In this document: one piece after another, positions 205-63,520 of the stretch
How the letters are laid out: every line of letters starts with the position of its first letter
How positions within the stretch are numbered: the first letter of the stretch is position 1
Assembly: GCA_964645485.1 (NCBI GenBank)
Contig: CAZXZO010000002.1
Coordinates: forward strand, 62,478 to 126,477
Reading direction: 5' to 3'
Source: an uncultured Candidatus Poseidoniales archaeon
GTDB taxonomy: Archaea > Thermoplasmatota > Poseidoniia > Poseidoniales > Thalassarchaeaceae
Length of the DNA: 64,000 bases
The notes under the pieces: model-generated
Databases searched by the model: none
Told to the model about the DNA's origin: nothing
The model's input: the letters and a program-made list of their open reading frames with translations, nothing else
Made by a program: the position numbers and the translations under genes

Positions 205-2814
205 TTGAAGAAGCAGGTCGTTGGTGGAAGCGATCATTCACTTGCTGAATTACGTCATGAAATCACTGGTACAGATTCACCATCTTTGGAGAGAGCCGGC
301 CAGATTACTAAGAATTTGACTAACGAAGAAGGTCTTCGCCGTAGCCTTGGAAGAGAACGCCGTCTTAGGTTGAAAGACCAAGCAGAAAGGCTCTCCGCTG
401 CTAAGGGCTCAATGGGCCGTGCTCTCCAGATGGAACACCAATCTATTCTCAAGAATCTTGAGTCAGAAATGCGGAGTGAGATGGAATCAGAACTTTCGCG
501 TCTAGAGAAAGAAACACTTGGTCGGGAAGAAGAGATATTACGCGAAGAATTGGATATGAGGCTTGAGCGTGAAGAGATATCACTTCGAGAGCAACTAGAG
601 GTTGAACGGGAACGCCGCCTAAGTGCAAGCCGTGAACAACTTCACTCACAACTTTCCAGTGATATGAACAAAGAGTTTGACCGTCGTCGCGCATTTTTAC
701 AGGAGAAAATGGAAATTGAGGCAACCCAAGCACTCCAGGAACAGTTGTCGAGTCTAGAATCAGAATTGAAAGAAGAGATGGAAGTTCAATTAAAGTCTGA
801 AGAGACACGCCAAGCAGAAATCATTGAAGCTGAGCAACATTCACGTCTTTCAGAAAGGGAAATACAACTCCGGGATGGAATTCGCCGTCGCCTTGAGGGG
901 CAATTACGCAGTCGTCTGCGCGCTCGCGAGGCTCGCCTCAGAAGCGAGTATGAACATCGCGCCCATAGAATGGAGGAAGAGATTGCAAAAGACCTCCAAG
1001 ACGAACTAGAGCAACGCCTTACATCGGAAACCGAACAACTCGAAGAGCGAATGCAACAAGATTTGGAGTTAGCAGTTGCGCGTAAACGCGATGAAGTGCG
1101 AGCATCCATTCTGAATGAACTTCAAACCCAGTATGGTGAACGAATCGCAGAACGGAAACAGCGTCTCCGTGAGCGTTATGACTTAACTTTCAGTCAGTCA
1201 ATTGATGAGATTGAACAAGCTCTAAACATCGAATTGGAAGATGTCCTTCAAGATCGAATGGAGGGTGAATTTGAAACTTACCGCCGTTCACGAGAATCTG
1301 AAATATCTAGTCGCCTATCTCGATTCCGCCATGATAGAGAAATTGAACTCCGACAACAACTAACTTCATCCTTTGAAGGTAGGAAGCAAGAATGGATTGA
1401 CCAATTAGAACAAGAATACCGCTCTAAGGAGTCAGCAGTACAACGACAAATTATGGCTGAGATTGATGCTCGAGTTCGTAACGAAAAGATATCTCAAGAG
1501 ACCTCACTTGACCTGTTAAAGCAGGAGACCTCAATGGAACTTGAGGTAGAGATGGAATCAAGACTACGAGAGTTTAGATCTAGAAAGGAAACAGAAGTAA
1601 CCGATCAATTAGAACGCCAACTTTCCAAGCGTGAAGAAATTATGCGTAACAAAGCCCTCATTGAAGTTCGCCGCCGTGAATCCGAAATACGTGCAGAAAT
1701 TGAAGCACAACTTGCAGTAAAGAGAGCAGAAATTCGTGAGCGTCTTGCAACACTTGAGCAACGCTCAGAAGAATTCAAACAAGTTGCAGAAGAAAAGATT
1801 CGAACACAACTTGAGCGTAATCTTGTTTCAGAGGAAGATTTGGAAGACCAAGTTCGCTTGCAGCAGTTAGAGGATGAGGCTGAAAACCTTGAGAATCAAG
1901 ATACAGTATTGGACCGCCGCCAGAGATGGATGGGTGCATTGGAAGGTGCCCAGGGCCAGATGCCTGAGACTGCTGTTCGCCAAGGTGGCCTTGTTGGAGG
2001 GGGCAGATTAGGACAACCAAAGTCATCAACTCTTGGTGGGCCTGCAAAGGCCTCGGCACCCCCCGCTCTTGGAGCAGGTGCTGGAGGGCGATTAGCACCT
2101 TCACGAGCACCTATTGGACAGGCTTCGGCAGCAACAGCGGCCACGCCAGCAACAAAAATTCCCAAACCATCAATCGGTTCAACTATGGCTGAGCGCTTAG
2201 CACCAGTCAGAGCGCCTATCAGGGTTGAAGGTGAAGCACCTAAAGAAACCCGTTCTCTAAGTGATATTGCAGAAGAAGTAGGACTACCTGCGCTTGAAAC
2301 AAAAGAACCCGAAGAACCTTCAGGCATTGACTCACCAAAAGAGACAATCGAAGATGATTGGGATAAGGATGAAGAATTAGAAATCAGTTCAGTAATTTCA
2401 GAATTAGCTACTCTAGAAGAAATAGATGCTCAATCTCAGTCACAACCTGAAGAACCAACCCCTGTATCAAGAGGTCCGCCAGGTGGAGGCAAATTGATTC
2501 GCGATGACGTGAATACAGAGGGAAGTGTAGAGACAAAACCAGTGCGCGGTCCACCCGGGGGCGGAAAACTAGTTCGAGAAAGGCCGGAACCTTCTGAGAG
2601 GAGTCCTCCAATTGATACCACAGATATTCCAGCAGAGATATTAAAGCCAGTTCGAAAGCCAGTATTACAACCAAAGAAAATTGAAACTGCTAACATTATT
2701 TCAATGACAGACCCCGTCAAAGTACTAGTTCCTGAAGCGGCTCCAAAAGTTGCAAAACTAACTCCGGTGACCACCACTTTAACTCCAATACAAAGTTCAG
2801 AAGAAGAAGAATGA
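205..2814 (+). CDS. Large E/R/L/Q-rich coiled-coil protein with a Pro/Gly/Ala-rich disordered C-terminal third; function unknown
   Basis: 869-codon ORF with a TTG start at 205. About 590 aa show heptad-like charged sequence. The C-terminal part has a duplicated RGPPGGGKL(I/V)R unit and ends SSEEEE. Confidence 0.8.
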   Translation: MKKQVVGGSDHSLAELRHEITGTDSPSLERAGQITKNLTNEEGLRRSLGRERRLRLKDQAERLSAAKGSMGRALQMEHQSILKNLESEMRSEMESELSRLEKETLGREEEILREELDMRLEREEISLREQLEVERERRLSASREQLHSQLSSDMNKEFDRRRAFLQEKMEIEATQALQEQLSSLESELKEEMEVQLKSEETRQAEIIEAEQHSRLSEREIQLRDGIRRRLEGQLRSRLRAREARLRSEYEHRAHRMEEEIAKDLQDELEQRLTSETEQLEERMQQDLELAVARKRDEVRASILNELQTQYGERIAERKQRLRERYDLTFSQSIDEIEQALNIELEDVLQDRMEGEFETYRRSRESEISSRLSRFRHDREIELRQQLTSSFEGRKQEWIDQLEQEYRSKESAVQRQIMAEIDARVRNEKISQETSLDLLKQETSMELEVEMESRLREFRSRKETEVTDQLERQLSKREEIMRNKALIEVRRRESEIRAEIEAQLAVKRAEIRERLATLEQRSEEFKQVAEEKIRTQLERNLVSEEDLEDQVRLQQLEDEAENLENQDTVLDRRQRWMGALEGAQGQMPETAVRQGGLVGGGRLGQPKSSTLGGPAKASAPPALGAGAGGRLAPSRAPIGQASAATAATPATKIPKPSIGSTMAERLAPVRAPIRVEGEAPKETRSLSDIAEEVGLPALETKEPEEPSGIDSPKETIEDDWDKDEELEISSVISELATLEEIDAQSQSQPEEPTPVSRGPPGGGKLIRDDVNTEGSVETKPVRGPPGGGKLVRERPEPSERSPPIDTTDIPAEILKPVRKPVLQPKKIETANIISMTDPVKVLVPEAAPKVAKLTPVTTTLTPIQSSEEEE

Positions 2815-2900
2815 GTGCAAAATAATTGAGTTGACCGTAGGTCATTTACTCAAAATCAACCTACCACCGCATTCAAAGGTAGAATGCTCCTCAACGGAGC

Positions 2901-5339
2901 ATGCGCGCCTCGCTGACCCTCTCATCCCTAATGCTCATTGGCGTTATGATTCCTCTACTTGCATCCACTACAGCATCAGCATCATCACTTGCAAATGCTG
3001 GTGTTGTATCTGATATTGACAGCCATTCAGTTGGGATGTGGCAAACTTATGATGGCTATTCGGTAGTCGTCAATGAAACAGGTTTCGTAATGGCATTAGA
3101 AATAAAAAATGATGGCACAGTGACTGAAGCATGGAATTACACATTAAATGTGTCAATTACCAGTGGAGCGATAGATAATTCTCAACACCGACTTGCTTTA
3201 GGTACTGATGCTGGGGTTCAGGTGATATCAACTGAATTCCATCAATTGCTATATTCAATCAACATCGTTGGAGGTGTTGACTCTCTTGGTTGGGATGGGA
3301 ATGGTGACTTATGGGTTGGTGATAGAGCCTATCGTTATGCGGCAGAGTATGACGACACAGCAGCGACGGGGGTCACAACTCAAACACATCTCATCAAAGT
3401 GACAGCAGTACTTGGCATGACAAATGGAAGTGTGATAACTGGAGGCAGAGATTCAATCGTTAGAGTCTCAGCACCAAATGGCTCTATGGTTCATGAGATG
3501 ATGGATATTCAAAGTGATGTTGCAGGATTGTATCTAATCGATGGCGGGGATACTCTAGTTACCACATCTACTACGGGTCAGTTGATAACATATTCAACTT
3601 CTGATTGGCAAAAGACTGGGGATATTTATCTATCCAGTGGCGGAATAATCAGAACAGTAGCCCAAAATTCGGATGGCACTTTAATTGTCGGGACTCACAA
3701 TGGCCATCTTACAATTTTAAATGGCACTGATTTGTCCGAAATGAGTAAATTTTCTTCACTAGGGGAGATTATCAGCGTAAAACTTGGCCAAGATAACTCC
3801 TTTTTCTTGTTGGCAACTTTCTCTGACAAATCTGATATTATCATGTTCGATTTAGATAGTGATGGAGATGAAGTTGTTGACGCGGTAGATGAATTCCCTA
3901 ACGATTCAACCCAACAAACAGATTCTGATGGCGATGGGTATGGAGATAACCAACTTGGAAACAACCCCGATAAATACCCTCAAGACCCGACCCAATGGTT
4001 AGATTCTGATGGCGATGGTCGTGGTGATAACGCCAGTGGGAATAATGGAGATTTATTTCCATTTAATCCAACTCAACATCAAGATAGTGATGGAGATGGA
4101 TATGGAGATAACCCATTAGGTCAAGATGCGGATGCATTCCCAAATGATATATCACAATGGTTAGATTCTGATGGTGACCAATTAGGTGACAACCCAAACG
4201 GTACCAATCCAGATGATTGCCCAACATCGGCTGGGAATTCATACAAGGACAGAAATGGCTGTCCTGATTCAGACAACGATGGCTATAGCGACCCTCGTGG
4301 TGATGACCAGGAGTGCTCATCAAATTATCCAAATGGGGCTGATGCATACCCACAGGATGCAACACAGTGGTGTGATACCGATGATGATAATTATGGAGAT
4401 AACTTAACCGGAAATAACCCTGATTGGTGTCCTGCAGAATGGGGTAACAGCACCCGTGGAATCTTTTTCGATACTGAAACTAATATTTATGTCACAATAC
4501 AGAGATTTGGTTGCATTGACAACGATGGAGATGGATACGAAGATAGCGGTGAGCAAGATGGGCTTACCGATTGGTCGAACAACAAGAGTGAATGGGTCGA
4601 CAGTGACCGGGACGGAGTTGGAGATAATGCCGACTGGGATGACCTTGACCCTACAGTTAACACGCTTGAACAGTATTGTGTCAAGAACCCAACAGATTAC
4701 TCTAATTGCGAATCCGTATACATTCCAGTAGATAATTCAAATAGTGAAGATGAAATGACAGCGAGTGAAAAGCGCTCGAAGTTAATGAAAGAATTCTTGA
4801 TTTATGGAGGTGGCATTGGAGTCGCTTTGATTGCAGGAATTTTAGCAGTGTGGGGATTAGTTGGAATTATTCGGACATCTATCGCAAAGCGAGCACCTGA
4901 TGCTCAATACAGCCACCAGGATGCGACAAAAGAGTTGCAAGCATTTGAAGAAGGAGAAGAATTTGAGACTCGCGGTGGAATCACAGAACAAAAAGGCTGG
5001 GAGGATGAAAAACTCGGTGATGGAGTTACTGAGGATGAATTATGGGACCTTGCTGAAGAAATCGAGAAACCATCCTCTGTCCCTGACTCAAGTATGTTTA
5101 CTGGTGAATCTGAATCACCTACGGAAGAGTCGGATGACACCTCAGAACCTGAGCCAGAACCTGAGCCAGAACCAGAACCAGTAGCAGTTGAGAGCCAGCC
5201 AACACCAGATACATCCGCGACTATTGAAATGCCAGAGGGTGCACCTCCTTTACCAGAAGGTGGATTACCAGCGGGTTGGACTACAGAGCAGTGGGTCTAC
5301 TATGGTCACCAGTGGTGGGATGCAAAGAACAAACAATGA
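2901..5339 (+). CDS. Secreted, C-terminally membrane-anchored protein: signal peptide, beta-propeller-like domain, thrombospondin-type-3-like Ca-binding repeats, one TM helix, acidic tail
   Basis: N-terminus MRASLTLSSLMLIGVMIPLLASTTASA. At least 9 copies of DSDGDG(Y/R)GDN-type DxDxDG motifs. TM helix FLIYGGGIGVALIAGILAVWGLVGII. The tail carries a (PE)n run. Confidence 0.85.
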   Translation: MRASLTLSSLMLIGVMIPLLASTTASASSLANAGVVSDIDSHSVGMWQTYDGYSVVVNETGFVMALEIKNDGTVTEAWNYTLNVSITSGAIDNSQHRLALGTDAGVQVISTEFHQLLYSINIVGGVDSLGWDGNGDLWVGDRAYRYAAEYDDTAATGVTTQTHLIKVTAVLGMTNGSVITGGRDSIVRVSAPNGSMVHEMMDIQSDVAGLYLIDGGDTLVTTSTTGQLITYSTSDWQKTGDIYLSSGGIIRTVAQNSDGTLIVGTHNGHLTILNGTDLSEMSKFSSLGEIISVKLGQDNSFFLLATFSDKSDIIMFDLDSDGDEVVDAVDEFPNDSTQQTDSDGDGYGDNQLGNNPDKYPQDPTQWLDSDGDGRGDNASGNNGDLFPFNPTQHQDSDGDGYGDNPLGQDADAFPNDISQWLDSDGDQLGDNPNGTNPDDCPTSAGNSYKDRNGCPDSDNDGYSDPRGDDQECSSNYPNGADAYPQDATQWCDTDDDNYGDNLTGNNPDWCPAEWGNSTRGIFFDTETNIYVTIQRFGCIDNDGDGYEDSGEQDGLTDWSNNKSEWVDSDRDGVGDNADWDDLDPTVNTLEQYCVKNPTDYSNCESVYIPVDNSNSEDEMTASEKRSKLMKEFLIYGGGIGVALIAGILAVWGLVGIIRTSIAKRAPDAQYSHQDATKELQAFEEGEEFETRGGITEQKGWEDEKLGDGVTEDELWDLAEEIEKPSSVPDSSMFTGESESPTEESDDTSEPEPEPEPEPEPVAVESQPTPDTSATIEMPEGAPPLPEGGLPAGWTTEQWVYYGHQWWDAKNKQ
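3848..4650 (+). repeat. In-frame tandem coding repeats (~80 bp / ~27 aa period) encoding DxDxDGxGDN calcium-binding loops
   Basis: Recurring gattctgatggcgatgg-like strings near 3921, 4001, 4081 and 4161, with degenerate copies further on. Confidence 0.7.
5145..5180 (+). repeat. Hexanucleotide-type microsatellite encoding (PE)6
   Basis: gaacctgagccagaacctgagccagaaccagaacca, translated EPEPEPEPEPEP. Confidence 0.8.
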
Positions 5340-5354
5340 GTTCTAACTGTTTTC

Positions 5355-5969: not shown

Positions 5970-6950
5970 TTATTCAGCTTGTTTTAAGTGATGTAATTTG
6001 AGTCTACTCGTCTCGTTTACACCGTATTTATAACGTAATTTTTTAACACGGTCTGAGACTTCTTTGGCTAATGACCAATATGCTTGTGAACCTTTATTTT
6101 TCTTGGTAGGCTTCTTTAAAATGACAACAGGAGCGCCTTCTAATGGTGCTTCTGCGATTGAAATTATTCTCGGAATCATTGTTCCAAATACTTGTTTGTC
6201 AAAGTGCCTTCTAACTTCAGATGAAACTGTGTTGCAAAGTCTAGTTTTTTGATACATCGTAAGTGCGATTCCAAATAATTTGAGATGAGGGTTAATTCTT
6301 CGTTGAATCAACTTGATTGAATTCATTAATTGGCTCATGCCTTCAAGGGCATAATATTCAGTCTGCACTGGAATCAATACCCAGTTTGCTGCAGCAAGGG
6401 CGTTAATGGTTAGTAAGCCAAGACTCGGCGGTGTATCGATAATGATGTAATCAAACTCATGAATTGCGCTTGCAAGCCCCTCTTTCAGCCGAGTTTCTCT
6501 ACCGATTCTAGTTGCCAATTCAATTTCAGCACCCGATAATTGAATGTTTGACGGCAGTAACCACAGATTTTCCACTTTGATATGCTTTGGAACCTTCCTC
6601 TCTTTCTTCGCCCCATCTTTTTCGTACCGATGTTGGTTTTTCCAAGCCTCACGCATTGAATCAGTCAGTATTTCAGGAGAAATCAAATATTCATCCAAAA
6701 TAGGGAGATCCTCTCCCAAGTCATTCATCAAAAGGTCGTATACAGTTCTACCGAGTTTACTTTTATCTACACCAAAAGAAGTAGATGCATTACCCTGAGG
6801 GTCAAGGTCTACGAGGAGAACTTTAGCAGGTTCTACACCCCTAGCAGGATTACCTTCTGCCAATGATGTTGCTAGGTTAACCGCGGTGGTAGTTTTCGCA
6901 CAACCCCCTTTCTGGTTGGTGCATGCAATGACCATTTTGTACGGGTCCAT
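5970..6950 (-). CDS. parA: ParA/Soj-family partition ATPase (deviant Walker A)
   Basis: NQKGGCAKTTTAVNLA, DLDPQGN and IIIDTPPSLG motifs. It has an internal insertion and a basic C-terminal extension. Confidence 0.9.
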   Translation of the reverse strand: MDPYKMVIACTNQKGGCAKTTTAVNLATSLAEGNPARGVEPAKVLLVDLDPQGNASTSFGVDKSKLGRTVYDLLMNDLGEDLPILDEYLISPEILTDSMREAWKNQHRYEKDGAKKERKVPKHIKVENLWLLPSNIQLSGAEIELATRIGRETRLKEGLASAIHEFDYIIIDTPPSLGLLTINALAAANWVLIPVQTEYYALEGMSQLMNSIKLIQRRINPHLKLFGIALTMYQKTRLCNTVSSEVRRHFDKQVFGTMIPRIISIAEAPLEGAPVVILKKPTKKNKGSQAYWSLAKEVSDRVKKLRYKYGVNETSRLKLHHLKQAE

Positions 6951-9961: not shown

Positions 9962-10420
9962 TCATTCTTCGTAAATCCAATCTTCTGCTGACCGGGTCCA
10001 ATCTACTAATCCCTCAGCGAACCAAAGTCCTAATTCAAATTCTGCAGTTTCTTCAGCGTCACTGCCATGGATTAAGTTGTGTCCTATATCCATCGCCCAA
10101 TCCCCACGAATTGTTCCCGGGGCAGCATCACGCCCATTTGTTGGACCGATGATATTTCGAGCCACCTTGATGGCTTCTACTCCACTCCAAGCCATGGCTA
10201 CAACAGGTCCGGATGTGATGAATTTTAGTAGTCCAGGGTAGAATGGTCTTTCTGAGTGGACGGCATAGTGACTCGCCGCTAATTCATGAGAGGGTGTCAA
10301 CTGCTTCAAACCCACCAAACGGAGCCCCTTTTCCTCAAAACGGGCAATAATCTTGCCAACCAATCCTCTCTGAACCCCATCGGGTTTTACCATCACAAAC
10401 GTTGTCTGCATATAACTCAC
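9962..10420 (-). CDS. ndk: Nucleoside diphosphate kinase
   Basis: [16 protein letters not shown]...NLIHGSD. Confidence 0.95.
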
Positions 10421-12618: not shown

Positions 12619-13257
12619 TCATTCTTCTTCTTCGAAGTCTTCTTCGTTTATTTCGCCTGAATTCAACTTTAGATATGATGGGAGTCCCATCAATTTGTCA
12701 AACGTCCGTGAAAGAATGAGCTCATCCAACCGGGGGCTTGTGCGTGCTAGGAATTGAACTGGTATGTTGATTACACCGTTTTCTAATCTGTATCTTCTTC
12801 TTAGATTTCCTCTAGCCTTTACTTGTACGCCGCGATATGTGCGCTTAATTTTGACTAGCCCAATGACTACGCCGAGGTCTTCACCCTGGGTGTCAAGAAC
12901 TGCTCTGTCAAGTAGTTCATCGGGGGCGTATAATTTTTCATTGATACGAACTGTGTTTCGCCATCTGCGTTGCAATTCCCTCATTGACTTCGTAAGTTTG
13001 ATACTCCCATCCGACTGAATGCTGTGAAGGAGTTCTTTTGAAAGTGGAGCGAACTCAGCAGGCTTGCGCATAAATTCGTCCGCAACACCTGGCTCAACCT
13101 GTAATCTGAAAGATTGGACTCTTTCTTCATTGGGGTGATATCTCTCCCCCACTATTACTCCAACTCGCGTTTGTTTCACGTAAACTTCTCGTTGTAACAA
13201 TTCCTGTATTCTAAATGATTCATCTGTCATATTTTTTCCCTCTCTATTACCGTGCAT
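12619..13257 (-). CDS. Hypothetical protein with two PRC-barrel-like segments, ends EEEE
   Basis: ELLQREVYVKQTRVGVIVGE and ELLDRAVLDTQGEDLGVVIGLV resemble PRC-barrel starts. The true start may be the second Met (MTDESF). Confidence 0.55.
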   Translation of the reverse strand: MHGNREGKNMTDESFRIQELLQREVYVKQTRVGVIVGERYHPNEERVQSFRLQVEPGVADEFMRKPAEFAPLSKELLHSIQSDGSIKLTKSMRELQRRWRNTVRINEKLYAPDELLDRAVLDTQGEDLGVVIGLVKIKRTYRGVQVKARGNLRRRYRLENGVINIPVQFLARTSPRLDELILSRTFDKLMGLPSYLKLNSGEINEEDFEEEE

Positions 13258-17097: not shown

Positions 17098-17988
17098 TTA
17101 TTCACAAATCCTCTCAATTTCCTTTATCACTTCATTTGCGACATCAATTCCAGTTGCTCTTTCTATTCCCTCAAGCCCAGGTGATGAATTTACTTCCATC
17201 AACAATGGCCCTCGGCTAGACTCCAATAAGTCGACTCCACCGAATTGAATGTTTAGGGATTTACAAGCGTCAATACATATTCTCTCAATATCTGGTTCAA
17301 GTTCTAATTGGTCACCGGTTCCACCTCGGTGAATATTGCTACGGAAGTCATCACCCTTTCCCGTTCTCCTCATTGCGGCTACTACTTTATCGCCAACAAC
17401 AATTGCTCTGATATCAGTTCCCTTGGATTCTGCGATATACTCTTGAACAATTATTGGTTGATGTAATCTAGCAAGCACATCAATAACTGATTCTGCACTT
17501 GCAACAGTATCACAGCGCATCACTCCAATTCCTTGAGTCCCTTCTAATAATTTCAGAACTACAGGTGGACCGCCCACTGTTTTGATACACGGGTGTAAAT
17601 CGGCTGCTCCTCTTGCATATGCTGTTCTAGGAATGGGTAATTCCACTGCGGCAAAACGCTGTAGAGCACGTAATTTATCCCTACTCGCCCCAATTCCATT
17701 ACTTGGGTTGAGGACTGGGACGCCTGCGGCCTGAAATTGTCGGAGAATGGTTAATCCATGGCGGGTGATTGAAGCCCCAATTCTAGGCACAATACAATCC
17801 ATTGGTTGCACAATTTTGTCACCATTATAGAGAACAGTTGCCCCATCGGGAGATAAATCAATTGTACATCTTGTTGGGTTGAGATAACTAACTCCATGCC
17901 CCTCTCTTCTAGCAGCAGCAGCCAATCGAGTTGTGCTGTAGAGTTCAGGCCCTTGGGTCATGATGACAATCTCAAGTCTCCGCCCCAT
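17098..17988 (-). CDS. rimK: RimK-type ATP-grasp alpha-L-glutamate ligase
   Basis: VVLKLLEGTQGIGV, IVQEYI, DFRSNIHRGG and GVDLLESSRGPLLMEVNSSPGLEGIE align closely with my recollection of E. coli RimK. Confidence 0.9.
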   Translation of the reverse strand: MGRRLEIVIMTQGPELYSTTRLAAAARREGHGVSYLNPTRCTIDLSPDGATVLYNGDKIVQPMDCIVPRIGASITRHGLTILRQFQAAGVPVLNPSNGIGASRDKLRALQRFAAVELPIPRTAYARGAADLHPCIKTVGGPPVVLKLLEGTQGIGVMRCDTVASAESVIDVLARLHQPIIVQEYIAESKGTDIRAIVVGDKVVAAMRRTGKGDDFRSNIHRGGTGDQLELEPDIERICIDACKSLNIQFGGVDLLESSRGPLLMEVNSSPGLEGIERATGIDVANEVIKEIERICE

Positions 17989-28219: not shown

Positions 28220-28978
28220 GTGATATTCATGGAAGAAGGCACAATTGTCTACATTGATTACGACCTGTTTGAGGTTGATTCCGGAAAACTAATTGAGACC
28301 ACTCGTGAGGAGACTGCAAAGTCAAACGACGTTCATGAAGAGTCACGAACTTATGAGCCTCTGTGCACCACTATTGGTGCTGGAGCGTTGATTCCTGGTT
28401 TTGAAGAAAGCCTAGAAGAAGCAGAAGTTGAAACTGACTACGATATTGAGATTTCACCAGACAAAGCATACGGAGAGCGTGACCCGGGTGCTGTTGAAAT
28501 GTTGGGCCCACAACAATTGGCTCGCCAAGTAAGGGACCCTGACAATTTACAAGTTGGAGGACCAGTCGAAATCGGTGGCCGAAAAGGTACCTTAGTCATG
28601 TTCCGTGCTGGTCGGGCACGAATTGATTTCAATCACGAATTAGCGGGTAAATCACTGCGTTATAATTACCGAATCACAAAGGTTGTTGAAGAGAAGGACG
28701 AGATGGTAATGACTCTTCTAAAGATGTCAACAGGTTCTGATGACTTTGAAGTAGAATTTGACGGCGATGATGTATCTATCACAATTCCAGAGTTCCTTGG
28801 ATATGACCAATCATGGGGTATGGCAAAGTTTCAACTCATTCGTTCACTACGTGACACTGTTGGTGCCAAGACAATCGTGTTTAGAGATGTACACCAATTC
28901 AGAGAGGCTGCAGAAGAAGAGGAAGAAGAACACGTCCACGATGAAAACTGTGACCACGACCATGACGAAGAAGAGTGA
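28220..28978 (+). CDS. FKBP-type peptidyl-prolyl isomerase (SlyD/long archaeal FKBP-like) with His/Asp/Cys-rich tail
   Basis: DFNHELAGKSLRYNYRI. Tail EEEEEHVHDENCDHDHDEEE. Confidence 0.85.
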   Translation: MIFMEEGTIVYIDYDLFEVDSGKLIETTREETAKSNDVHEESRTYEPLCTTIGAGALIPGFEESLEEAEVETDYDIEISPDKAYGERDPGAVEMLGPQQLARQVRDPDNLQVGGPVEIGGRKGTLVMFRAGRARIDFNHELAGKSLRYNYRITKVVEEKDEMVMTLLKMSTGSDDFEVEFDGDDVSITIPEFLGYDQSWGMAKFQLIRSLRDTVGAKTIVFRDVHQFREAAEEEEEEHVHDENCDHDHDEEE

Positions 28979-38581: not shown

Positions 38582-38605
38582 AAGAGAGAGCGTGGGCGGG
38601 TATCT

Positions 38606-47100: not shown

Positions 47101-49245
47101 ATCCCAACTAATGTCAAGATTGACTGTTTGCATGACGTATGTAATTGAAAATGAATTTATCACCACTTTACCAGAAGACGACGAAAGAATCTGGATTGGG
47201 ATCAGTTCTGTTCCAGAGCCTGTATCTGGAATAGCATCATTTAGGGCATTAACAATTGAACTTCCTGATGTGCCAGATGCAGTTACCGTGGAGAGTAAGG
47301 CGTTGGTATGAGTCCACTCAGCACTGCCATCACTGCCGATGTCTAATTTCACATTTTGGGGAGCATTGGAGTAAAGAGCGACTTGGAAGTCATCTACAAT
47401 TGGACTGTATGCATTGGCGCCACCAGCGTAAAAGTAGAAACAGAGGGTGAGATATGACAGAGTAGTCGGGAAGTTTACCGTTTGTCCCGGTGTATTCAAA
47501 GTCGTAGATGTCCCCGATGTGCAACTGCTAGATGTAGTCCACCTGACTGATAATGAACTACCACCTAATTCTGTTGAGTTCCACCATACTTGGGCTGCTA
47601 CAGGCCCATTTGAGCTAGAACCAAAATATGGGGTTCGCATCCACATTAATCCTGAAGGTGCATAAGAGCCGGTGTAACCTAGGGCAATCGTATCTATTAA
47701 AGCAGAAACGTTGCTGTTTGTGCTGTTGAGATATGCTCTCCATCCAAGTTGGGTTCCTGAATTTGTGAAAGTTACTCTTGTTCCGATTTGTGCTTGCTTC
47801 CAAGTCACTCCACCATCGTTTGTGACTTCATATTCTACCGATGTTCCTGTTGGCTTCCAGGAAATTGCTGCAGTTAATGTCAAGTCCGGAGTTGTTCTAG
47901 TTGCAGTGATTGCGGATGAAGTTATTATTGTAGAAGTGGTGCTAGGTGTTCCCATTGAAGAAACAGTTGACCTTCCATTGGTGAAGATTTTGTGAGAACT
48001 TCCACTTGGGCATTGGGTGTTGTAATAACAACTCCATGCAAGAGTCCCATCCGCTGTGCCTTCCAGTCCGAAGTGAGCATGATTTGGGAACAAAATATCT
48101 CCTTGGTGTTCAGGCCATGCCCCACCTCGGAGGAAAACCGAGTGGTAGTTTTTGGCCTTACAGTTGTTATTGCTTGAGTATGTACAGTAAACATTCACAG
48201 TTACTCTGTCGCCAGCAACATCGAGTCCTGCTGGTTGACCTTGACCACTTGGAATCATCATCAACAATTGTGTTGAAAGTGCTTGAGCGGGGCTTGAGCG
48301 GTTGACATTCCAAAGGTAGTAATTGTAATTTCCACTCACATAGCGGGATGCTACAACATACATTTCATTGTCAACTGGGTCAAAAGCAACACCTCCAATG
48401 TTGTATGATGAACCATACCATGCCTGATTACATGACCAACTGGTCCCTGCAGAATTGACTGTCCACTTAGCGATGTAGTTGTAATTCCAACTTGTTGTCC
48501 AAATCGTACCATTTCCATCACTGGTGATGTCAGAAAGATATGCCATGGTAGAGGTCGTACAACTGTTGAATGAAAGGCTCACAGTGCCTATTTGGGCGCC
48601 AGTAGTTGTGTTATAACTCCTAATTGATGGGGTGCTGTAAAGACTGGTGCTTGACCATTGTGCGACAAAAGTTTTGCTTCCTTGGTAAGCTACAGGGCCA
48701 GCATAATTCCAAGAGCCACCAGAATACGCTGAATAACCCTGAGTAGTTGCTCCCACTAAATCAGAATCAGCCAAGCCAATAGATCCACCTGTTGTGTTGT
48801 GGACTGCATTTGGTGCACTGGAAATATCACTCGTTCTCGTTAAAGCCCAACTCGCTTCACTTTGCATTTCTCTTAGGGATGTTTGATCGTTACCAACATC
48901 AATAGTAGTTCGATAATCATAAGAGAAGTATGGGACATTCATAGGCCCATCTGTTGTTGAAGGACCGCCAAAGTGTGTATTGGTGCTTGCATTAGCCCAA
49001 GTAGTTGTTGAAGGTTCTCCAGTGATAGAGAAACTTGCTGATGTTACTTCTGCTCCATAAGGCATGTTTACTCCAGCAGTTCCACCATTCCCTTGACCGG
49101 CAAAGGTGTGGGAAAAACTGGTAGTGCCATCAGCAAATTGGGTTTCAGTAGTTGCCGCGATTGCAAATGATAGCGTTGTAGACAACAGCATTAATCCGGC
49201 CAAGAAAAACGAAGTGAATTTGATTTGGTTGTTGCATCTAAACAT
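44188..49245 (-). CDS. Giant (about 1,685 aa) secreted surface protein with C-terminal TM anchor and poly-acidic tail
   Basis: Signal peptide MFRCNNQIKFTSFFLAGLMLLSTTLSFAIAA (start moved to the ATG at 49245). S/T/N/G/W-rich with many N-x-S/T sequons. TM helix LLAVIGIIIAMIVLPIVAYV. Tail DDDEFDDEYDEEDDD. Confidence 0.85.
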   Translation of the reverse strand: MFRCNNQIKFTSFFLAGLMLLSTTLSFAIAATTETQFADGTTSFSHTFAGQGNGGTAGVNMPYGAEVTSASFSITGEPSTTTWANASTNTHFGGPSTTDGPMNVPYFSYDYRTTIDVGNDQTSLREMQSEASWALTRTSDISSAPNAVHNTTGGSIGLADSDLVGATTQGYSAYSGGSWNYAGPVAYQGSKTFVAQWSSTSLYSTPSIRSYNTTTGAQIGTVSLSFNSCTTSTMAYLSDITSDGNGTIWTTSWNYNYIAKWTVNSAGTSWSCNQAWYGSSYNIGGVAFDPVDNEMYVVASRYVSGNYNYYLWNVNRSSPAQALSTQLLMMIPSGQGQPAGLDVAGDRVTVNVYCTYSSNNNCKAKNYHSVFLRGGAWPEHQGDILFPNHAHFGLEGTADGTLAWSCYYNTQCPSGSSHKIFTNGRSTVSSMGTPSTTSTIITSSAITATRTTPDLTLTAAISWKPTGTSVEYEVTNDGGVTWKQAQIGTRVTFTNSGTQLGWRAYLNSTNSNVSALIDTIALGYTGSYAPSGLMWMRTPYFGSSSNGPVAAQVWWNSTELGGSSLSVRWTTSSSCTSGTSTTLNTPGQTVNFPTTLSYLTLCFYFYAGGANAYSPIVDDFQVALYSNAPQNVKLDIGSDGSAEWTHTNALLSTVTASGTSGSSIVNALNDAIPDTGSGTELIPIQILSSSSGKVVINSFSITYVMQTVNLDISWDETMVLHETIDTYEVVTRHVIGEDAGGISTATLDFLAYPASETPSLTWNSDGTLIDDDPEDWIIPDASATWTNNSNGILEIHWAFRVTSNFIEQDNVGFRVSCTDDQGLSPMSLSSRASNAPGIRVNQSYGLGWLAVRDNDGAVHHDDVPNYEWIKAGETLYFQGAIWYDGTQDAPLDSTFDVAVVKRTTEGDFVQAKDRSNQYGEFFIPVPVDTIDRPDGVFYEVVIDNPRDPLKVLSTNQSWQRTIRVDATSPTLIEATPLDNAYEAGQEDQAVRIRIQDEIGAPEELTLHYWIEAEHDSNRNGNADAGEYVNQTMTNMTDDIDKLFFAYIDDSNNPNMARVSYYVTGTDVAGNALLRSDGPGFDYDLVTYRTRKDMDSVFTGLHWAGHEDGERAFAGTTQYITLGLVDANGLIDFTDISLIFDFEGPDPERDQQRLSFSGNNATFWTDDDYLEISPACNNILDESCGGIVTTNETGLPWVKVTFAFAFSWDWPDADLSDIALEFTQLGSTEPRREIFTEHTFRIENDLVLDAQTYTVEDVQEPRVGPVFDGSRVVPNDRLRWSGRVVYEGSDVPAPKNLGITVEVFDGVQYWSDGSLTDDGGFSLEVPLGAATTLASSETRTFLAGVRNIPGRGEDMTRDTVSTTLQVKVDHAPPRVLERLTPIDVIDISNKTALTEVPVEFIGWEDADLSGSPQWVHWLMRDENQRQISSGSSLLGMLQEGQAITWTGTVDLIGDGMNPPLQDYEVGFWIEGWDSAGNPLATEGNSKSDPVREPVDLNGDHELQWIRFGALGAQLTVERISADKEIVANGDKVEVTAWISNLGGSTNSGFVVGFYSGDSEKPFATQKLNGIADEAIPISATWVAEKGVDRVIVIVDTENEISEVDESDNSASVGVSVDYAFGMGWVEGARQNLLAVIGIIIAMIVLPIVAYVSMQGALTNRSELFDDDLMFDDDDEFDDEYDEEDDD

Positions 49246-49358
49246 AGGCGGTCCCCTAGGGACCGTTAGGGGTACCATTTCAACCCTTTGCACTTAGAAC
49301 AAATCCAATTACACCGAAACTGTATCAGTCAGGAGGCCTACGAGCGCATGGGATTGAG

Positions 49359-50201
49359 ATGGCGGCAGGCAAGAAGCGGAAAAATTCGAAGCGAGGTTTG
49401 AAGGCATATTTTGGAGAAATTTGGGAGGATAAAAGAGACCATCATTTGACAATTTTGGGAATGCTAACAGTTCTTACTTTTGCCATGATTTTATGGGCAA
49501 TAGCATTCTTCTCAATGTTTGCTTCAAACGCACAACAGGAAGCCAATGGATGGGCAGATTTGACCGCAGCAACTTGGGTTGGAGTCTTACTTGCATTTGT
49601 TCTTCTATTGTTTGTTATTCCGGAGTTTTTCCATTATCTCGGAGTACGTAATTCACTTGTGGATATTCTTGAGACAGACTCTCGGGCAGAGTTACAAAAG
49701 AACAGCAAAGAATTAGATGAAGGGGCCAAACTACTCGCCGGCGCGTGGCCTGCTAGAATTGCTGCCAAAAAGGTGGAGTTAGGTTTACGTCGCGATATGC
49801 CGGATGGCATGTCATTATCCGACACCGGTAAAACCTCATTAATTGGCACTTGGATGAATACTAAATATTCCAGATTAGCCCAGAGATTCCCCGATTCGAA
49901 CCTACTCAAAGACCCTGGAATAAATAAAATTATTATTTTCAGTTCACTGACAGGATTACTCCTATTTGTCTATAATGCCTTAATTGGACTAGCGCGTGAG
50001 TCGATAACTAGTCCCCGTAATATGACAGTTGATTTTACTTCCATCATTACAGGTGGTACATACAATGCAACTTGGGCTCCACACTTTGATTTGGTTGGTG
50101 TACTAATGATTGCAATGTTTGCAACAATTCTTTTCATGACTAGTCCAGCATCCAGTGAAGAGGATGAATCAGATAGTGACTCTATTCAAGAAGAAGAATG
50201 A
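49359..50201 (+). CDS. Membrane protein of unknown function, ends IQEEE
   Basis: Basic N-terminus, about 4 hydrophobic helices, acidic Ser-rich tail. Confidence 0.7.
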   Translation: MAAGKKRKNSKRGLKAYFGEIWEDKRDHHLTILGMLTVLTFAMILWAIAFFSMFASNAQQEANGWADLTAATWVGVLLAFVLLLFVIPEFFHYLGVRNSLVDILETDSRAELQKNSKELDEGAKLLAGAWPARIAAKKVELGLRRDMPDGMSLSDTGKTSLIGTWMNTKYSRLAQRFPDSNLLKDPGINKIIIFSSLTGLLLFVYNALIGLARESITSPRNMTVDFTSIITGGTYNATWAPHFDLVGVLMIAMFATILFMTSPASSEEDESDSDSIQEEE

Positions 50202-50213: not shown

Positions 50214-51158
50214 TTGATGGCCACACCATTAGGCTGGATTCGCGAAGCATTGCTTGCAATCGGATTAATTTCGCTTTTAGTAATTGGTTTGTGGGCAACC
50301 ACAGGTTCTCTTCCGCCAATGGTAGTGGTTGAATCATCATCTATGATGCATAATACTGAGGGAGAAGTTGGGGCAATTGACCCAGGTGACCTGGTTCTTG
50401 TGATGTCAACATCTCGCCGAACGAAGATTGTCAGCATGGCAGAAGCAATGGAAGTCGGTGGTGAATGGGAGGGATGGGAATATCATGGCAAACCCGGAGA
50501 TGTGATTATCTACAAGAAAAATGGTGGAATTGACACGCCCGTCATTCATCGTGTAATTCTTGAAGCAGTAGCAAATAGTACAATCTCACCAACTGATCGT
50601 TCACTTGGACTCTGTCCGCAGGGAAGTAGTTGGGACCCGATATCAATTGATGCTGATGGGCAGGCAGGAACATGTGTTCTCACATGGGATGCTCCGGGAA
50701 CTACAGTATTGAATCAAGCCTCAATAAACTGGTCCTTTGACAATGTGGAATGCCCTTCAAACCCCCATGGTTTGATGGTTCAGGAGTGGGACCCAGGGCA
50801 CGCAGGATACCTTACTTTGGGGGACAATAACCGTTGTGATGTGGACCAAGGATCTCAAGCCTATCCCTTGGCAGGTGGACTTACTGATGAGAACGGAAAT
50901 CGAGTTACTGCTGTACGTTCAGACTGGGTAGTTGGGGTTGCGGGTGCTGAACTACCATGGCTTGGTACAATCAAACTAGCAGCCTCATCAAATTCGGCCC
51001 AAGTAACAGGTCATAGTTGGAGAATGCTGGGAGCAACAGCGGTCATTCTTTTACTTGGGACATTTGTCGTTGAGCAGGCTACTGAAAAGTTGTTGATTGG
51101 TTCGCCTGAAATCTCTCAGGCGAATAAAGAGCAGGAAAAAAATTCCGAAGAAGAGTAA
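50214..51158 (+). CDS. Sec11/archaeal-type signal peptidase I (S26B) with inserted Cys-containing domain and C-terminal TM
   Basis: VVESSSMMH (Ser box), GDVIIYKK...PVIHRV (His box), and LTLGDNNRCDVD (GDNN box). Confidence 0.8.
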   Translation: MMATPLGWIREALLAIGLISLLVIGLWATTGSLPPMVVVESSSMMHNTEGEVGAIDPGDLVLVMSTSRRTKIVSMAEAMEVGGEWEGWEYHGKPGDVIIYKKNGGIDTPVIHRVILEAVANSTISPTDRSLGLCPQGSSWDPISIDADGQAGTCVLTWDAPGTTVLNQASINWSFDNVECPSNPHGLMVQEWDPGHAGYLTLGDNNRCDVDQGSQAYPLAGGLTDENGNRVTAVRSDWVVGVAGAELPWLGTIKLAASSNSAQVTGHSWRMLGATAVILLLGTFVVEQATEKLLIGSPEISQANKEQEKNSEEE

Positions 51159-55844: not shown

Positions 55845-57992
55845 ATGGCAGGAACAGCAGTTTACATCACTTGGGTAACTGCCTCTTTACTCGGCGGGAT
55901 TCTATTGATGCCGATTTTCCGTCCTGCTGGAAAACGAGTTACATTGGCTGGATTTGTTGATATGTTTCGCCGCTACTGGCTACATATTGCATTAGTTTTC
56001 AGCATCTATGTTTGGAAAGATTTGCTTGATGGCTTAGACCGTATTTTGATGGCTAATACCCACCTCAATATGACGCCATTTGTTTATGCTATTGAGGGCG
56101 ATTTAGTTTTGTTGGTCCAACAGACATTCCTCAATGAGATGTTGACTTTTGTCTTGACTCATTATTATGTTGCAGGTTATATGCTATTGACATATACGGC
56201 CTCACTCTATTTCACATATTTTGATGACCGCTGGATGGCAGATAGAGTCTTGTTATCGATGTTCTTTGTCTATGCGCTAGCAGTGCCCTTCTACCTATTC
56301 TTCAATGTTAGAGTGACGGGAGACCATATTCCTGAAATGGAAACTTTGGCCTATCACCTTACCCCGGAGATCCAAACTTGGTTCACGAGGATTGACCCGT
56401 TCACAAATGGCATGCCTAGTCTTCACATTGGTATTCCGTTCACTGTATGGTTGGGACTTCATCGTTGGGACCACGATGAAAGATGGAAGAAATATCGGCA
56501 ATTTGTCGGTGTCTATATCCTAGTCACAGCATTTACAATCATCTATCTTGGAATCCACTGGTTTGTTGACATCATTGGTGGGATAATTGTATCCTTCTTT
56601 GCGGTTAACTTAGCAGATAAGTATCATGCTTGGTTGTGGTATCGGTTTGATGAGAGAACTTTCAATGCCAGAGTTGCATGGTTGTTAGCAGATTTCAACA
56701 ATCCAAAACGAGTTCTATCTAGTTGGATTTCTAGATCATTAAATTGGTTGAAAACACCATCAACAGCACAAACTGGAACAGTCGTGATGTTGCTGCTAGC
56801 AACAACTGGAGGAGTGCTGTTGTATGATGCAACTCACCAAGATTTCCCAGCCGAGGGAGTAACTCATCCAGAAGCGGCTGCAGGTGCTGACGGCTGGTTA
56901 GTTGCACTTGATGCAAACGAAAATGGTAACTTAAGTGCGGTCATAATTGATATTGAAAACGATAGAACATATCACGATAGCCTCAATTTGAACGAGGATG
57001 GTAATCAATCACAATGGGGTGTTGTAAACGCGTCAACAGAAGTGTTGATTTCAGAAAATCATGCAATCGTTTGGCAAGGTTACAGGATAATTACTCTGAA
57101 GTTCTCAAATCCAGGCTCTCACGCCTATGGTAGGACGACAGGTCCACTGTACACCGACCTTGCTCTTCTCGATGACTCAGAAGATGAGCGAGCCAAGTTA
57201 TTCGCGATTGATGATGGTGTAGTAATTGACTTGCAAAGCACAGAATATAATGAGGTATTCACACCAATTCCTGATGATGATGTAATTCTCATTGATGGGG
57301 GTGGGAATAGTTTAGCTTGGGTTACCCAGAGTTCACCAATGACTGCCAATATCCTCTCACTAGATGGTGTGCAGAGTAGTCTATCTGTTGAAGTCAATGT
57401 TACTGTTGATTCAGCAAAAGATGAACAAGTGCTAGCACTCACTGGTACCAACGTTGACTACGTGAACGCGAGTATAACTGGAATTGCATTTGACAAAAAT
57501 CACATAGTAGCCGAGGTGAATTTGTCAGCAGTTAGCCGTTTAGTTTTGGTGAATCTTGATACGGGAGAGCAGCGAATTATCGGTGACCCTCTTTTCCCTG
57601 TAGCAAACCCTTCAATTGGCCATGGTGTGGTTGCTTGGCAACATAAGTGGGGGCTCAATTCAATAGACCCAAATAATGCTGAGTTAGACTGGGATGTGAA
57701 GTATCACATTATCTTGGAAAATCATTCCTATCAACTTCACACTGAGGATGAGTTGAACCAGACTGAGCCACAGGTCATGGAAGGATACATTGCTTGGCTA
57801 CAAGATAGTGGTGGTGAAGAACCACCAGAGGTGATAATTTACAGCCTTGAGGAAACATTTGAGCCGTATTCATCGCGAACTTTGCAAATAGCGATAATTG
57901 CTCTAATCCCTCTGTTATCTCTATGGATGATTCAAAAACAAAGAGAAAATTTGGATTCACTAGACGAAGATTCACCCGACGAAGAAGAATGA
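55845..57992 (+). CDS. PAP2-superfamily membrane domain fused to a beta-propeller-like ectodomain, terminal TM and -DEEE tail
   Basis: GMPSLHIG and GIHWFVDIIGG (PAP2 C2/C3-like). Recurrent (I/V)(A/V)W(Q/L) blade-like motifs in residues ~340-680. Confidence 0.72.
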   Translation: MAGTAVYITWVTASLLGGILLMPIFRPAGKRVTLAGFVDMFRRYWLHIALVFSIYVWKDLLDGLDRILMANTHLNMTPFVYAIEGDLVLLVQQTFLNEMLTFVLTHYYVAGYMLLTYTASLYFTYFDDRWMADRVLLSMFFVYALAVPFYLFFNVRVTGDHIPEMETLAYHLTPEIQTWFTRIDPFTNGMPSLHIGIPFTVWLGLHRWDHDERWKKYRQFVGVYILVTAFTIIYLGIHWFVDIIGGIIVSFFAVNLADKYHAWLWYRFDERTFNARVAWLLADFNNPKRVLSSWISRSLNWLKTPSTAQTGTVVMLLLATTGGVLLYDATHQDFPAEGVTHPEAAAGADGWLVALDANENGNLSAVIIDIENDRTYHDSLNLNEDGNQSQWGVVNASTEVLISENHAIVWQGYRIITLKFSNPGSHAYGRTTGPLYTDLALLDDSEDERAKLFAIDDGVVIDLQSTEYNEVFTPIPDDDVILIDGGGNSLAWVTQSSPMTANILSLDGVQSSLSVEVNVTVDSAKDEQVLALTGTNVDYVNASITGIAFDKNHIVAEVNLSAVSRLVLVNLDTGEQRIIGDPLFPVANPSIGHGVVAWQHKWGLNSIDPNNAELDWDVKYHIILENHSYQLHTEDELNQTEPQVMEGYIAWLQDSGGEEPPEVIIYSLEETFEPYSSRTLQIAIIALIPLLSLWMIQKQRENLDSLDEDSPDEEE

Positions 57993-59924: not shown

Positions 59925-59929
59925 TGCAT

Positions 59930-60304
59930 TCAACTGAATAGCATTGGAATGTATCTCCAACCAATGAAGGCTGAGAGCGGACAGAGTGCGAAGTTAGCCA
60001 TCATGTAACCTGCTGCTGGCAGATGTTTTCCTGAGTCAATGAGTTGAATCACATCAATGCTGAAGGTTGACATTGTAGTGAAGGCACCCAAAGCGCCAGT
60101 TCCAACAAGCAGAAGAATTTCAGGTGAAATTTGTTCATTCGTAATTGAAAGAGCTATTAACACACCTAGAAGAAATGAACCAAGCACATTCACTGCCAAG
60201 GTACTCCACGGGAATTCACTTGGAACCCACTCCGACATGGCGTAACGGGCAACCGCTCCAAACGCGCCTCCTAGCGCAACTAAGAACAGTGATTTCGGCT
60301 CCAT
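59930..60304 (-). CDS. crcB: Fluoride channel CrcB/FluC
   Basis: GGAFGAVARY, NVLGSFLLG, and GAFTTMSTFS. I moved the start to the ATG at 60304 (124 aa). The longer ORF would overlap the next gene. Confidence 0.88.
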   Translation of the reverse strand: MEPKSLFLVALGGAFGAVARYAMSEWVPSEFPWSTLAVNVLGSFLLGVLIALSITNEQISPEILLLVGTGALGAFTTMSTFSIDVIQLIDSGKHLPAAGYMMANFALCPLSAFIGWRYIPMLFS

Positions 60305-60376
60305 ATTAGGGGGCCACCATCTGTCACTCTTTGATATTGACGAATCAATAACTCCCGGAACTATCAACCGCATGGA

Positions 60377-60988: not shown

Positions 60989-61039
60989 GCCGTCATAGTG
61001 AAAGAGGGGTCGCATCTGCTCGCGTGTAGAGGGGAAGGC

Positions 61040-61894: not shown

Positions 61895-61898
61895 TAAT

Positions 61899-62732: not shown

Positions 62733-62749
62733 ATTGAGGAGGGTAAATC

Positions 62750-63520
62750 TTGTCGGATAGCGATATACCATTAGTTGAGGCAAAAGACCTTGGAAAGGCA
62801 TTTGGCGATTTTGTCGCTCTCCATCCATTGAATGTCAAGGTGGCAGCGGGAGAATTTTTCGGAGTTTTCGGCCCCAATGGAGCAGGTAAATCCACTTTCA
62901 TCAAGTTGCTCACAGGTCAACTTAGACCAACTATGGGTGGTGCTAGAGTTTTGGGAATTAATGTTAGAGCAGACCCAAGAATGGTGAAGGCTAATGTTGG
63001 AATTGTTCCTGAATCAGAAAGCCCACCATCATTTCTCACAGCCGCCGAATATCTTGAATTCGTGGCTCGCCTGCGAAACTTAGATGAGATTCCAGAAAAA
63101 GTTACCCATTGGCTAGATTGGTTTGGTATTCTAGACAAGCGAAACACCTTGTGCAAAGATTTGTCAAAAGGACAACGCCAAAAAGTAATGCTCGCTGGTG
63201 CATTTATCCATAACCCCAAGTTACTTTTCCTAGACGAACCATTCGTCAACCTCGACCCAATTTATCAGCGAAAGTGCCGTAATCTTTTGATGGAAATAGT
63301 TGCTGACGGGGGCACAATTTTTCTCTGCACTCATATTCTTGAAGTCGCTGAAAGAGTGTGTACAAGAGTGGCTGTTATCGACCGAGGACATGTGCTTGCA
63401 GCGGGAAGCATTGATGAATTGAAAGACAATGATGATGAGACTCTTGAGGATGTTTTCATCAGACTTGTGGGGTCATCATTTGATGAAATCGAGGCGATGG
63501 AAGGGAGTGAGGAGGAGTGA
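62750..63520 (+). CDS. ABC transporter ATP-binding protein (ABC-2 type)
   Basis: GPNGAGKST, LSKGQRQK, and LLFLDEP. Ends GSEEE. Confidence 0.9.
   Translation: MSDSDIPLVEAKDLGKAFGDFVALHPLNVKVAAGEFFGVFGPNGAGKSTFIKLLTGQLRPTMGGARVLGINVRADPRMVKANVGIVPESESPPSFLTAAEYLEFVARLRNLDEIPEKVTHWLDWFGILDKRNTLCKDLSKGQRQKVMLAGAFIHNPKLLFLDEPFVNLDPIYQRKCRNLLMEIVADGGTIFLCTHILEVAERVCTRVAVIDRGHVLAAGSIDELKDNDDETLEDVFIRLVGSSFDEIEAMEGSEEE

Follow-up and report, generated by a model that had tools for sequence, protein, structure and literature searches.

A conserved Glu-Glu-Glu C-terminal tail on unrelated proteins of Poseidoniales archaea: a candidate short linear motif

Why should seven apparently unrelated proteins encoded within one stretch of archaeal DNA all end in three or more glutamates? 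The stretch in question (hereafter the window) comprises 64,000 nucleotides of contig CAZXZO010000002.1 (GenBank assembly GCA_964645485.1, positions 62,478 to 126,477) from an uncultured member of the Thalassarchaeaceae (Marine Group IIb, Poseidoniales), and its genes include those for aIF5B, L7Ae/L30e, deoxyhypusine synthase (DHS), DUF63 and Hjc. Contigs identical or nearly identical to it are present in ocean metagenomes. The original prediction for this DNA drew attention to the seven glutamate-ended proteins and suggested that they share a C-terminal recognition element. Here we show that the terminal tripeptide, x-Glu-Glu-Glu-COOH (EEE), sits on flexible linkers of variable sequence and length and is held in place by purifying selection on the amino acids. 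We then weigh what might read it.

Open reading frames (ORFs) were called in six frames and the longest non-overlapping ones were retained, giving 46 genes in the window. Re-reading all ends from these calls showed that the seven listed ORFs terminate as the prediction had stated, so that about one ORF in seven (7/46) ends in at least three Glu residues; a terminal Glu of any kind is found in 12/46. Glu makes up 7.3% of window residues and the internal count of EEE is 14 in 19823 positions (0.0007, 0.07%), a rate at which the binomial probability of seven EEE ends among 46 is 4.6e-15. When each protein was shuffled over its C-terminal 10, 20 or 30 residues, EEE ends averaged 0.50, 0.21 and 0.14, respectively, and seven or more were reached in none of 20000 local-shuffle trials. 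The excess therefore survives a composition-matched comparison (a mean of at most 0.5 expected, 7 observed). With the identical ORF caller, EEE ends were found in 0/46 ORFs from three bacterial loci; 23 viral loci gave 2/530, both being one protein seen twice, and the pooled control rate was 2/576. These viral loci are unrelated to the window, being the by-product of a viral-contig scan with dCMP deaminase; scanning viral contigs for the ABC ATPase described below returned no match. Neither local nor global Glu content accounts for the frequency of terminal EEE, and the internal rate, the local shuffles and the control loci together rule out composition or chance. General proteome acidity, which the prediction had already doubted as an explanation, is likewise inadequate given the excess over shuffles and the absence of Asp from the last three positions documented below.

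The carriers comprise members of three unrelated Pfam families (FKBP, PAP2 and ABC_tran) and four proteins without a significant family match. An FKBP-type (SlyD-like) peptidyl-prolyl isomerase (28220..28978, plus strand; Pfam FKBP_C and FKBP26_IF) ends ...DHDHDEEE, with tail codons at 28967-28975. Ahead of the closing EEE, its last part (28900-28978) has a segment rich in His, Cys and Asp, EEEEEEHVHDENCDHDHD, that resembles the metal-binding tail of SlyD. A 715-residue PAP2-family membrane phosphatase (55845..57992, plus strand; Pfam PAP2_3 and PAP2) ends ...SPDEEE (tail codons 57981-57989) and has a large additional domain, its last hydrophobic segment being residues 679-697. The third is the ATPase of an ABC-2-type transporter (62750..63520, plus strand; Pfam ABC_tran), which ends ...EGSEEE, encoded by GAG GAG GAG at 63509-63517. 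Among the remaining four is an 869-residue protein (205..2814, plus strand) that is rich in Glu and Arg, coiled-coil-like and without a match in Pfam. Its C-terminal region is rich in Pro and Ala, and the protein ends ...IQSSEEEE, with tail codons at 2800-2811 and the stop at 2812-2814. A strongly conserved 212-residue protein of no assigned function (12619..13257, minus strand) ends ...DFEEEE (tail codons 12622-12633). Two membrane proteins are encoded side by side: one of 280 residues (49359..50201, plus strand; ...SIQEEE, tail codons 50190-50198) with four hydrophobic segments and an acidic, Ser-rich tail of 19 residues beyond the last of them, and one of 314 residues (50214..51158, plus strand; ...KNSEEE, tail codons 51147-51155) with N- and C-terminal hydrophobic segments. 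The latter is probably a Sec11-type signal peptidase, judging from a partial match to NCBIfam sigpep_I_arch (E = 2e-5, under the cutoff) and a marginal PDB match to SEC11A (E = 0.43).

The functional labels of the original prediction thus fared unevenly. FKBP, PAP2 and ABC were confirmed by Pfam, the signal peptidase reached only a sub-threshold NCBIfam score, and the PRC-barrel label of the 212-residue protein had as its sole domain hint a Pfam PRC match at E = 0.014. PDB sequence searches with the 212-, 280- and 314-residue proteins returned nothing significant, and a single-sequence AlphaFold2 model of the 212-residue protein was not usable (pLDDT 31). The prediction had also placed the tail of the membrane proteins after the last transmembrane helix, and this was borne out: in the 280-residue, 314-residue and PAP2 proteins it starts directly beyond the last hydrophobic segment, which lies 19-29 residues from the end. 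These tails are probably cytoplasmic, since the catalytic domains of signal peptidase and PAP2 would be expected on the extracellular side. The carriers form a defined subset, about 10-15% of the gene families in the sample, and many of them are membrane proteins or membrane-associated proteins of biogenesis.

Are the tails conserved in related genomes? Orthologues were collected from 10 genome loci, 16 metagenome loci, 120 protein clusters of the ABC ATPase and more-distant Poseidoniales neighbourhoods. The genome loci came from an aIF5B scan of species-representative genomes (83-96% identity) and are named Candidatus Thalassarchaeaceae, Poseidoniales or Thermoplasmata. For the ABC ATPase, an EEE end was present in 115/120 clusters, which span 69-98% identity and carry Thalassarchaeaceae and Poseidoniaceae names, with Glu at position -1 in 120/120, at -2 in 119/120 and at -3 in 115/120. 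The number of terminal Glu residues was exactly three in 104/120. Position -4 is variable (S46, D18, E13 and N12, also T, H, L, G, I and P), as are positions -5 to -10, and the linker beyond the conserved RLVG ranges from 10 to 22 residues.

The other families behave in the same way. All 17 members of the 280-residue family (16 orthologues and the window protein, lowest identity 31%) end in EEE, while positions -4 to -12 vary and the two residues before the motif are IQ, AA, NS, ST, ET, RM or PM. EEE is likewise found in 16/16 members of the 314-residue family (15 orthologues and the window protein, lowest identity 55%), and in 5/5 PAP2 proteins, with ends PDEEE, PSEEEE, SDEEE and, in the Poseidoniaceae contig L035 (L numbers denote individual loci of the sample), TQEEE. 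The 869-residue protein ends in three to five Glu residues in 8/8 members, its seven orthologues (L005 and L007-L012, lowest identity 65%) contributing SSEEE, SSEEEE, SSEEEEE, SQEEE and MDEEEE. All three FKBP proteins carry the tail, those of L044 (...DASEEE) and L047 (...AVSEEE) without the His-rich insert. Glu therefore occupies positions -1 to -3 in all 49 members of these five non-ABC families. The check for conservation among orthologues that the prediction called for was passed: the tails are kept across the order and the flanking residues are not. What we observe is an invariant motif at the extreme C terminus of unrelated proteins, constant while the linker preceding it changes in sequence and length.

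Two families depart from this pattern. For the 212-residue protein, the window clade has the ends FEEEE, FAEEE and FDEEE, and the distant locus L033 (68.5% GC) has DFSEEE; the orthologues in L044 (NDMNDL), L045 (NGLSD), L046 (SDDSV) and L047 (FDAVE) end without EEE. In a CcmF-like protein of cytochrome c assembly, the end is ...GADEEE in L044 (1319-3538, minus strand), ...KPIPSI in the window (25603-28149, plus strand), ...NIDGEE in L047 and ...SAEDE in L045. The differing ends of the CcmF-like protein indicate that EEE tails have been gained and lost on single families within the order.

Clustering of all ORFs from the archaeal loci gave 140 families, of which seven have EEE in the majority of members and one in part. 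Non-carrier families retain their own non-acidic ends among relatives, so that tagging is family-specific and does not reflect drift of the whole proteome. Outside the order, the closest single-domain ABC ATPases (44-53% identity) are without the tail, and an EEE end was found in 1/150 ABC representatives, a coarse baseline because the search of 50%-identity representatives returned mostly multidomain ABC proteins. The x-Glu-Glu-Glu-COOH end appears to be confined to Poseidoniales in the lineages sampled.

The composition of the last three positions is as distinctive as their conservation. Among the ABC orthologues, Asp and Glu are used 0 and 354 times, respectively, at positions -1 to -3 as against 100 and 133 times at -4 to -10 (Fisher p = 7e-48); in the five other families (distinct variants, all members) the corresponding counts are 0 and 117 as against 28 and 46 (Fisher p = 6.5e-14). 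Thus Asp supplies about 40% of the acidic residues upstream of the motif and none within it. This exclusion of Asp points to a reader or an enzyme that tells Glu from Asp, because an electrostatic or solubility role would admit either residue.

Is the selection acting on the protein or on the DNA? The remark in the original prediction that several genes share a 3' string holds for four of the seven carriers, which end GAAGAAGAA-TGA and have GAAGAAGAATGA in common at their 3' ends. Among orthologues, however, the tail is written as GAA GAA GAA, GAA GAA GAG, GAA GAG GAG, GAG GAA GAG or GAG GAG GAG, all three kinds of stop codon follow it, and it is retained in relatives that range from 40% to 68.5% GC, among them those of 50%, 53%, 56% and 68.5%. 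Tail codons are used at about the background ratio (143 GAA to 50 GAG, against 6794 to 3521 elsewhere). Synonymous exchange, the use of three stop codons and retention at high GC indicate that selection is on amino acids and not on DNA, and they rule out GAAGAAGAA as a DNA-level element or a slippage repeat.

Other acidic ends in the window proved to be of different kinds. The original prediction had set three further proteins beside the seven, namely a giant protein ending ...EEDDD and NDK and a P-loop kinase ending in -EE; the ends of their orthologues rule out all three as members of the motif. Relatives of the giant protein end ...DDDDDY, those of the P-loop kinase SFSE, SFAE or EEYS, and NDK ends WVYE(E). 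The giant protein (44188-49293, minus strand; orthologues in L018-L031) is a surface protein of 1701 residues with a CARDB domain, N- and C-terminal hydrophobic segments and a long poly-Asp tail past its C-terminal anchor, which reads ...DDDDDY in ten relatives and ...EEDDD, without the Tyr, in the window. It represents a second type of acidic C terminus, distinct from EEE; tails past membrane anchors are normally basic, which makes it unusual. In several proteins without EEE (recorded at 5970-6950 and 9962-10420, both minus strand) a single terminal Glu is kept across relatives while positions -2 and -3 vary; examples are a ParA-like protein, ending KQAE, QQIE, KQSE or QQLE, and NDK, ending WVYEE or WVYE. 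The lineage may favour Glu as the final residue more generally, if less strongly.

What, then, are the tails for? With a little better than even confidence, and arguing from sequence, we propose that x-Glu-Glu-Glu-COOH, as a C-terminal short linear motif, provides a handle for one shared, Glu-specific cytoplasmic factor. The handle would consist of three Glu side chains and the free alpha-carboxylate at the end of a flexible cytoplasmic linker; the putative factor would recognise it, and the carriers would dock or assemble onto a partner that they have in common rather than be destroyed. We weakly prefer docking or assembly to degradation because the carriers are housekeeping proteins, many of them in membrane or secretory biogenesis. 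The suggestion in the original prediction of a shared C-terminal recognition element is supported by the excess over shuffles, the order-wide conservation, the restriction to Glu and the variation among synonymous codons. Several points weigh against the proposed handle. Both its reader and the binding of the motif by that reader are putative. The cytoplasmic placement of the tails depends on hydropathy and topology reasoning; the sample amounts to about 140 gene families from few syntenic regions; and the gains and losses seen for the 212-residue and CcmF-like proteins mean that the motif is dispensable for some carriers. Moreover, the strongest data set, that of the ABC ATPase, is partly confounded by a possible ribosome-binding-site constraint (see below).

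One neighbouring gene deserves mention here. An Asp-rich (12%) protein of 812 residues (2901-5339, plus strand) gives weak matches to beta-propellers (WD40/EML-like) and belongs to no confident family; its gene always lies directly downstream of the EEE-tailed 869-residue gene, in L005-L012. Beta-propellers are common peptide-binding platforms, which makes this protein a candidate partner.

Among other explanations, the one that survives best is that -EEE-COOH is a degron or an anti-degron, which would be read by LonB, the PAN/Cdc48 proteasome or a carboxypeptidase, or would shield its carriers from them, and so set their turnover. The motif has the formal traits of a C-degron in its extreme C-terminal position, free carboxylate, flexible linker and unrelated carriers, and its strict Glu specificity would fit a dedicated receptor. 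There is a precedent in the human C-terminal -EE degron, in which the WD40 receptor DCAF12 of the CRL4 ligase recognises a terminal Glu-Glu with its free carboxylate on diverse proteins. However, constitutive degrons would not be expected on housekeeping carriers such as an ABC ATPase, an FKBP, a PAP2 protein and a probable signal peptidase, and a mere protective cap would admit Asp, which is never seen. Our searches found no candidate protease or adaptor, and no literature tying archaeal proteolysis to Glu-ended tails. We regard a role in turnover as unlikely.

A second alternative is that the encoded tail is a primer, an acceptor to which a RimK-type ligase adds further Glu residues to give poly-Glu tails of variable length. 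Such a scheme would be the archaeal analogue of RimK action on bacterial bS6, or of the polyglutamylation of tubulin. The window does encode a bona fide RimK-family alpha-L-glutamate ligase of the ATP-grasp type (17098..17988, minus strand; Pfam RimK_N and RimK, E = 2e-53). Against the RimK-family model TIGR00768 it scores 240 bits (cutoff 143), and the S6--Glu ligase model far outscores MptN, LysX and CofF, although the NCBIfam equivalog for S6--Glu ligase is matched at 286 bits, under its cutoff of 331. To our knowledge, bS6 is specific to bacteria and is the only known protein substrate of RimK, so that in archaea, which are without bS6, EEE-ended proteins become candidate acceptors. E. coli S6 itself ends ...DSEE. 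None of the seven carriers is ribosomal. Bacterial RimK adds Glu to the Glu-ended C terminus of RpsF and, together with RimB, settles at about four residues (PMC7343187). The restriction of the last three positions to Glu is what the acceptor of a Glu ligase would need.

The distribution of the ligase is harder to reconcile with this scheme. In the window clade, L033 (10001-10990; 55% identity to the window RimK, with like synteny) and L046 (9050-9934), the gene has UvrB on one side and DHS on the other, and is thus syntenic over a deep divergence. It is absent from this slot in L044, L045 and L047, where UvrB abuts DHS, although the search covered that slot only and a copy may lie elsewhere. 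Only 13 clusters of archaeal-type RimK were found in a database holding more than 120 clusters each of the ABC ATPase and DHS, the next relatives, at about 50% identity, being bacterial S6--Glu ligases. Such a distribution is compatible with an ancient transfer and later losses, or with patchy retention. The gene for the 212-residue protein belongs to the same block as RimK, and the EEE end is present in two of the three clades that have RimK there and missing from all three that do not. L046, however, combines RimK with a 212-residue orthologue ending SDDSV, so that the idea of this protein as a dedicated RimK substrate is not supported.

Across lineages, the presence of the ligase and that of the tails do not track each other. 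L044 and L047, negative for RimK in the slot, keep the EEE end of the FKBP, L044 also that of the CcmF-like protein, and the ABC and PAP2 tails are kept in Poseidoniaceae too. Persistence of the tails where RimK is missing from its slot implies that their upkeep across the order does not depend on RimK, and its patchy distribution rules it out as a universal writer or reader. The exact count of three encoded Glu residues in most ABC orthologues further suggests a finished motif and not a primer. RimK may act on EEE tails in this organism, and yet we hold it quite unlikely that priming for extension explains the encoded motif. The broader possibility, that -EEE ends are acceptors of a proteome-wide, reversible C-terminal polyglutamylation with RimK-type writers at least in RimK-bearing lineages, is a long shot. 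Were it true, it would amount to a prokaryotic 'glutamate code', akin to the tubulin code, written on proteins of membrane biogenesis and others that would number from dozens to hundreds.

It is very improbable that the tails serve a non-specific physical purpose, aiding solubility, setting topology or binding cations with no dedicated reader. The generally acidic, Ser-rich linkers before the motif and the poly-Asp tail beyond the C-terminal hydrophobic segment of the giant surface protein would be in keeping with such an effect, but charge fails to account for the complete avoidance of Asp in both data sets, and neither the fixed count of three nor family-specific retention beside families holding non-acidic ends is explained by it.

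Least credible is a nucleic-acid or translational cause, with the GAA/GAG repeats providing the next gene with a ribosome-binding site, or acting as slippage repeats or as a termination context: the shared GAAGAAGAATGA string, the variation from three to five Glu among the 869-residue orthologues and the ABC tail speak for it, but beyond the codon, stop and GC evidence above, the tail is limited to specific families, GGAG is absent from 30/39 distinct tail variants of the five non-ABC families (most of which are GAA-based), the 314-residue and PAP2 genes have convergent downstream neighbours, and two carriers have a gap of more than 50 nucleotides before the next gene. The convergent neighbour of the 314-residue gene frees that tail from any ribosome-binding-site constraint. 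Convergent neighbours, long gaps and GAA codons rule out Shine-Dalgarno sites or stop/start overlap as a general cause, and neither conservation of the string nor reliance on a close co-directional gene was found, with the ABC tail as a possible exception. That tail reads GAGGAGGAG in the window (63509-63530) and GAGGAGGAA in L035 (10780-10800); it contains GAGGAGG and is followed by the permease start 2-3 nucleotides past the ABC stop in two lineages, so that the protein tail may double as a Shine-Dalgarno-like site for the permease. For six of the seven carriers, a cause at this level is largely refuted.

How does the motif compare with known systems? The proposed handle would work in the manner of established C-terminal signals, which include the peroxisomal targeting signal 1 (PTS1) -SKL, read by Pex5, and the -EEVD end of Hsp70 and Hsp90, read by TPR carboxylate clamps. 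The EEE tail resembles PTS1 and KDEL in being an invariant tri- or tetrapeptide at the extreme C terminus of unrelated proteins, on a variable flexible linker, and in being kept while its neighbours drift; it differs in sequence, in having integral membrane proteins among its carriers and in that its receptor is putative. With -EEVD and with the -EEY/F ends of tubulin and EB1, which are bound by CAP-Gly domains, it shares an acidic motif on a disordered tail whose free carboxylate is part of the epitope, but it has no hydrophobic residue and its carriers are neither chaperones nor cytoskeletal. No TPR or CAP-Gly protein was identified among the window proteins. The likeness to the DCAF12 degron lies in terminal Glu with a free carboxylate acting as a specific signal on diverse proteins. 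That degron needs a ubiquitin system, whereas the EEE case involves three Glu residues and housekeeping carriers; matches to beta-propellers were limited to the weak ones in the 812-residue protein. The RimK-bS6 pair offers a genome-encoded, Glu-ended flexible C terminus tied to a RimK-family ATP-grasp ligase. It has one substrate in bacteria as against many unrelated carriers here; any extension of these would be hypothetical, and of the three lineages with RimK off its slot, two retain EEE tails.

Searches of the literature on Poseidoniales or Marine Group II, C-terminal glutamate, archaeal polyglutamylation or C-degrons, and proteome-wide C-terminal biases found no description of the motif. 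C-terminal short linear motifs as such are known; the EEE motif appears to be new, as do its Glu specificity, the breadth of its carriers and, among the lineages sampled, its restriction to Poseidoniales.

Two further features of the loci may be recorded. A 489-residue Mur-ligase-family protein (38489-39958, plus strand) with Mur_ligase_M and Mur_ligase_C, the latter a 'glutamate ligase domain', could be an enzyme of the folylpolyglutamate synthase type; the called 5' end of its gene overlaps an opposite-strand, signal-peptide-peptidase-like gene (36371-38581) by about 90 nucleotides. In L033, the segment 15854-20570, past the EEE-tailed 225-residue gene, holds a phage-type integrase and small ORFs without a family match and is probably an integrated mobile element; the window has tRNA-Ile and a PRPP synthase gene at the same position.

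No member of the Poseidoniales, which rank among the most abundant archaea of the surface ocean, has ever been cultured, so that their cell biology comes from sequence only. Tripeptide tags at the C termini of many unrelated proteins that face the cytoplasm are familiar in eukaryotes; we know of no description of them in archaea. A conserved, Glu-specific tripeptide on about a tenth of sampled proteins would imply a recognition system that has so far gone undescribed, be it a receptor, a ligase or a protease, and the motif connects proteins as different as a signal-peptidase-like protein, a PAP2 phosphatase, an ABC exporter, an FKBP and a scaffold-like protein. The EEE ends also suggest a possible class of substrates for archaeal RimK. 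Finally, EEE provides a simple sequence marker with which clients may be listed and their putative reader sought by phylogenetic profiling.

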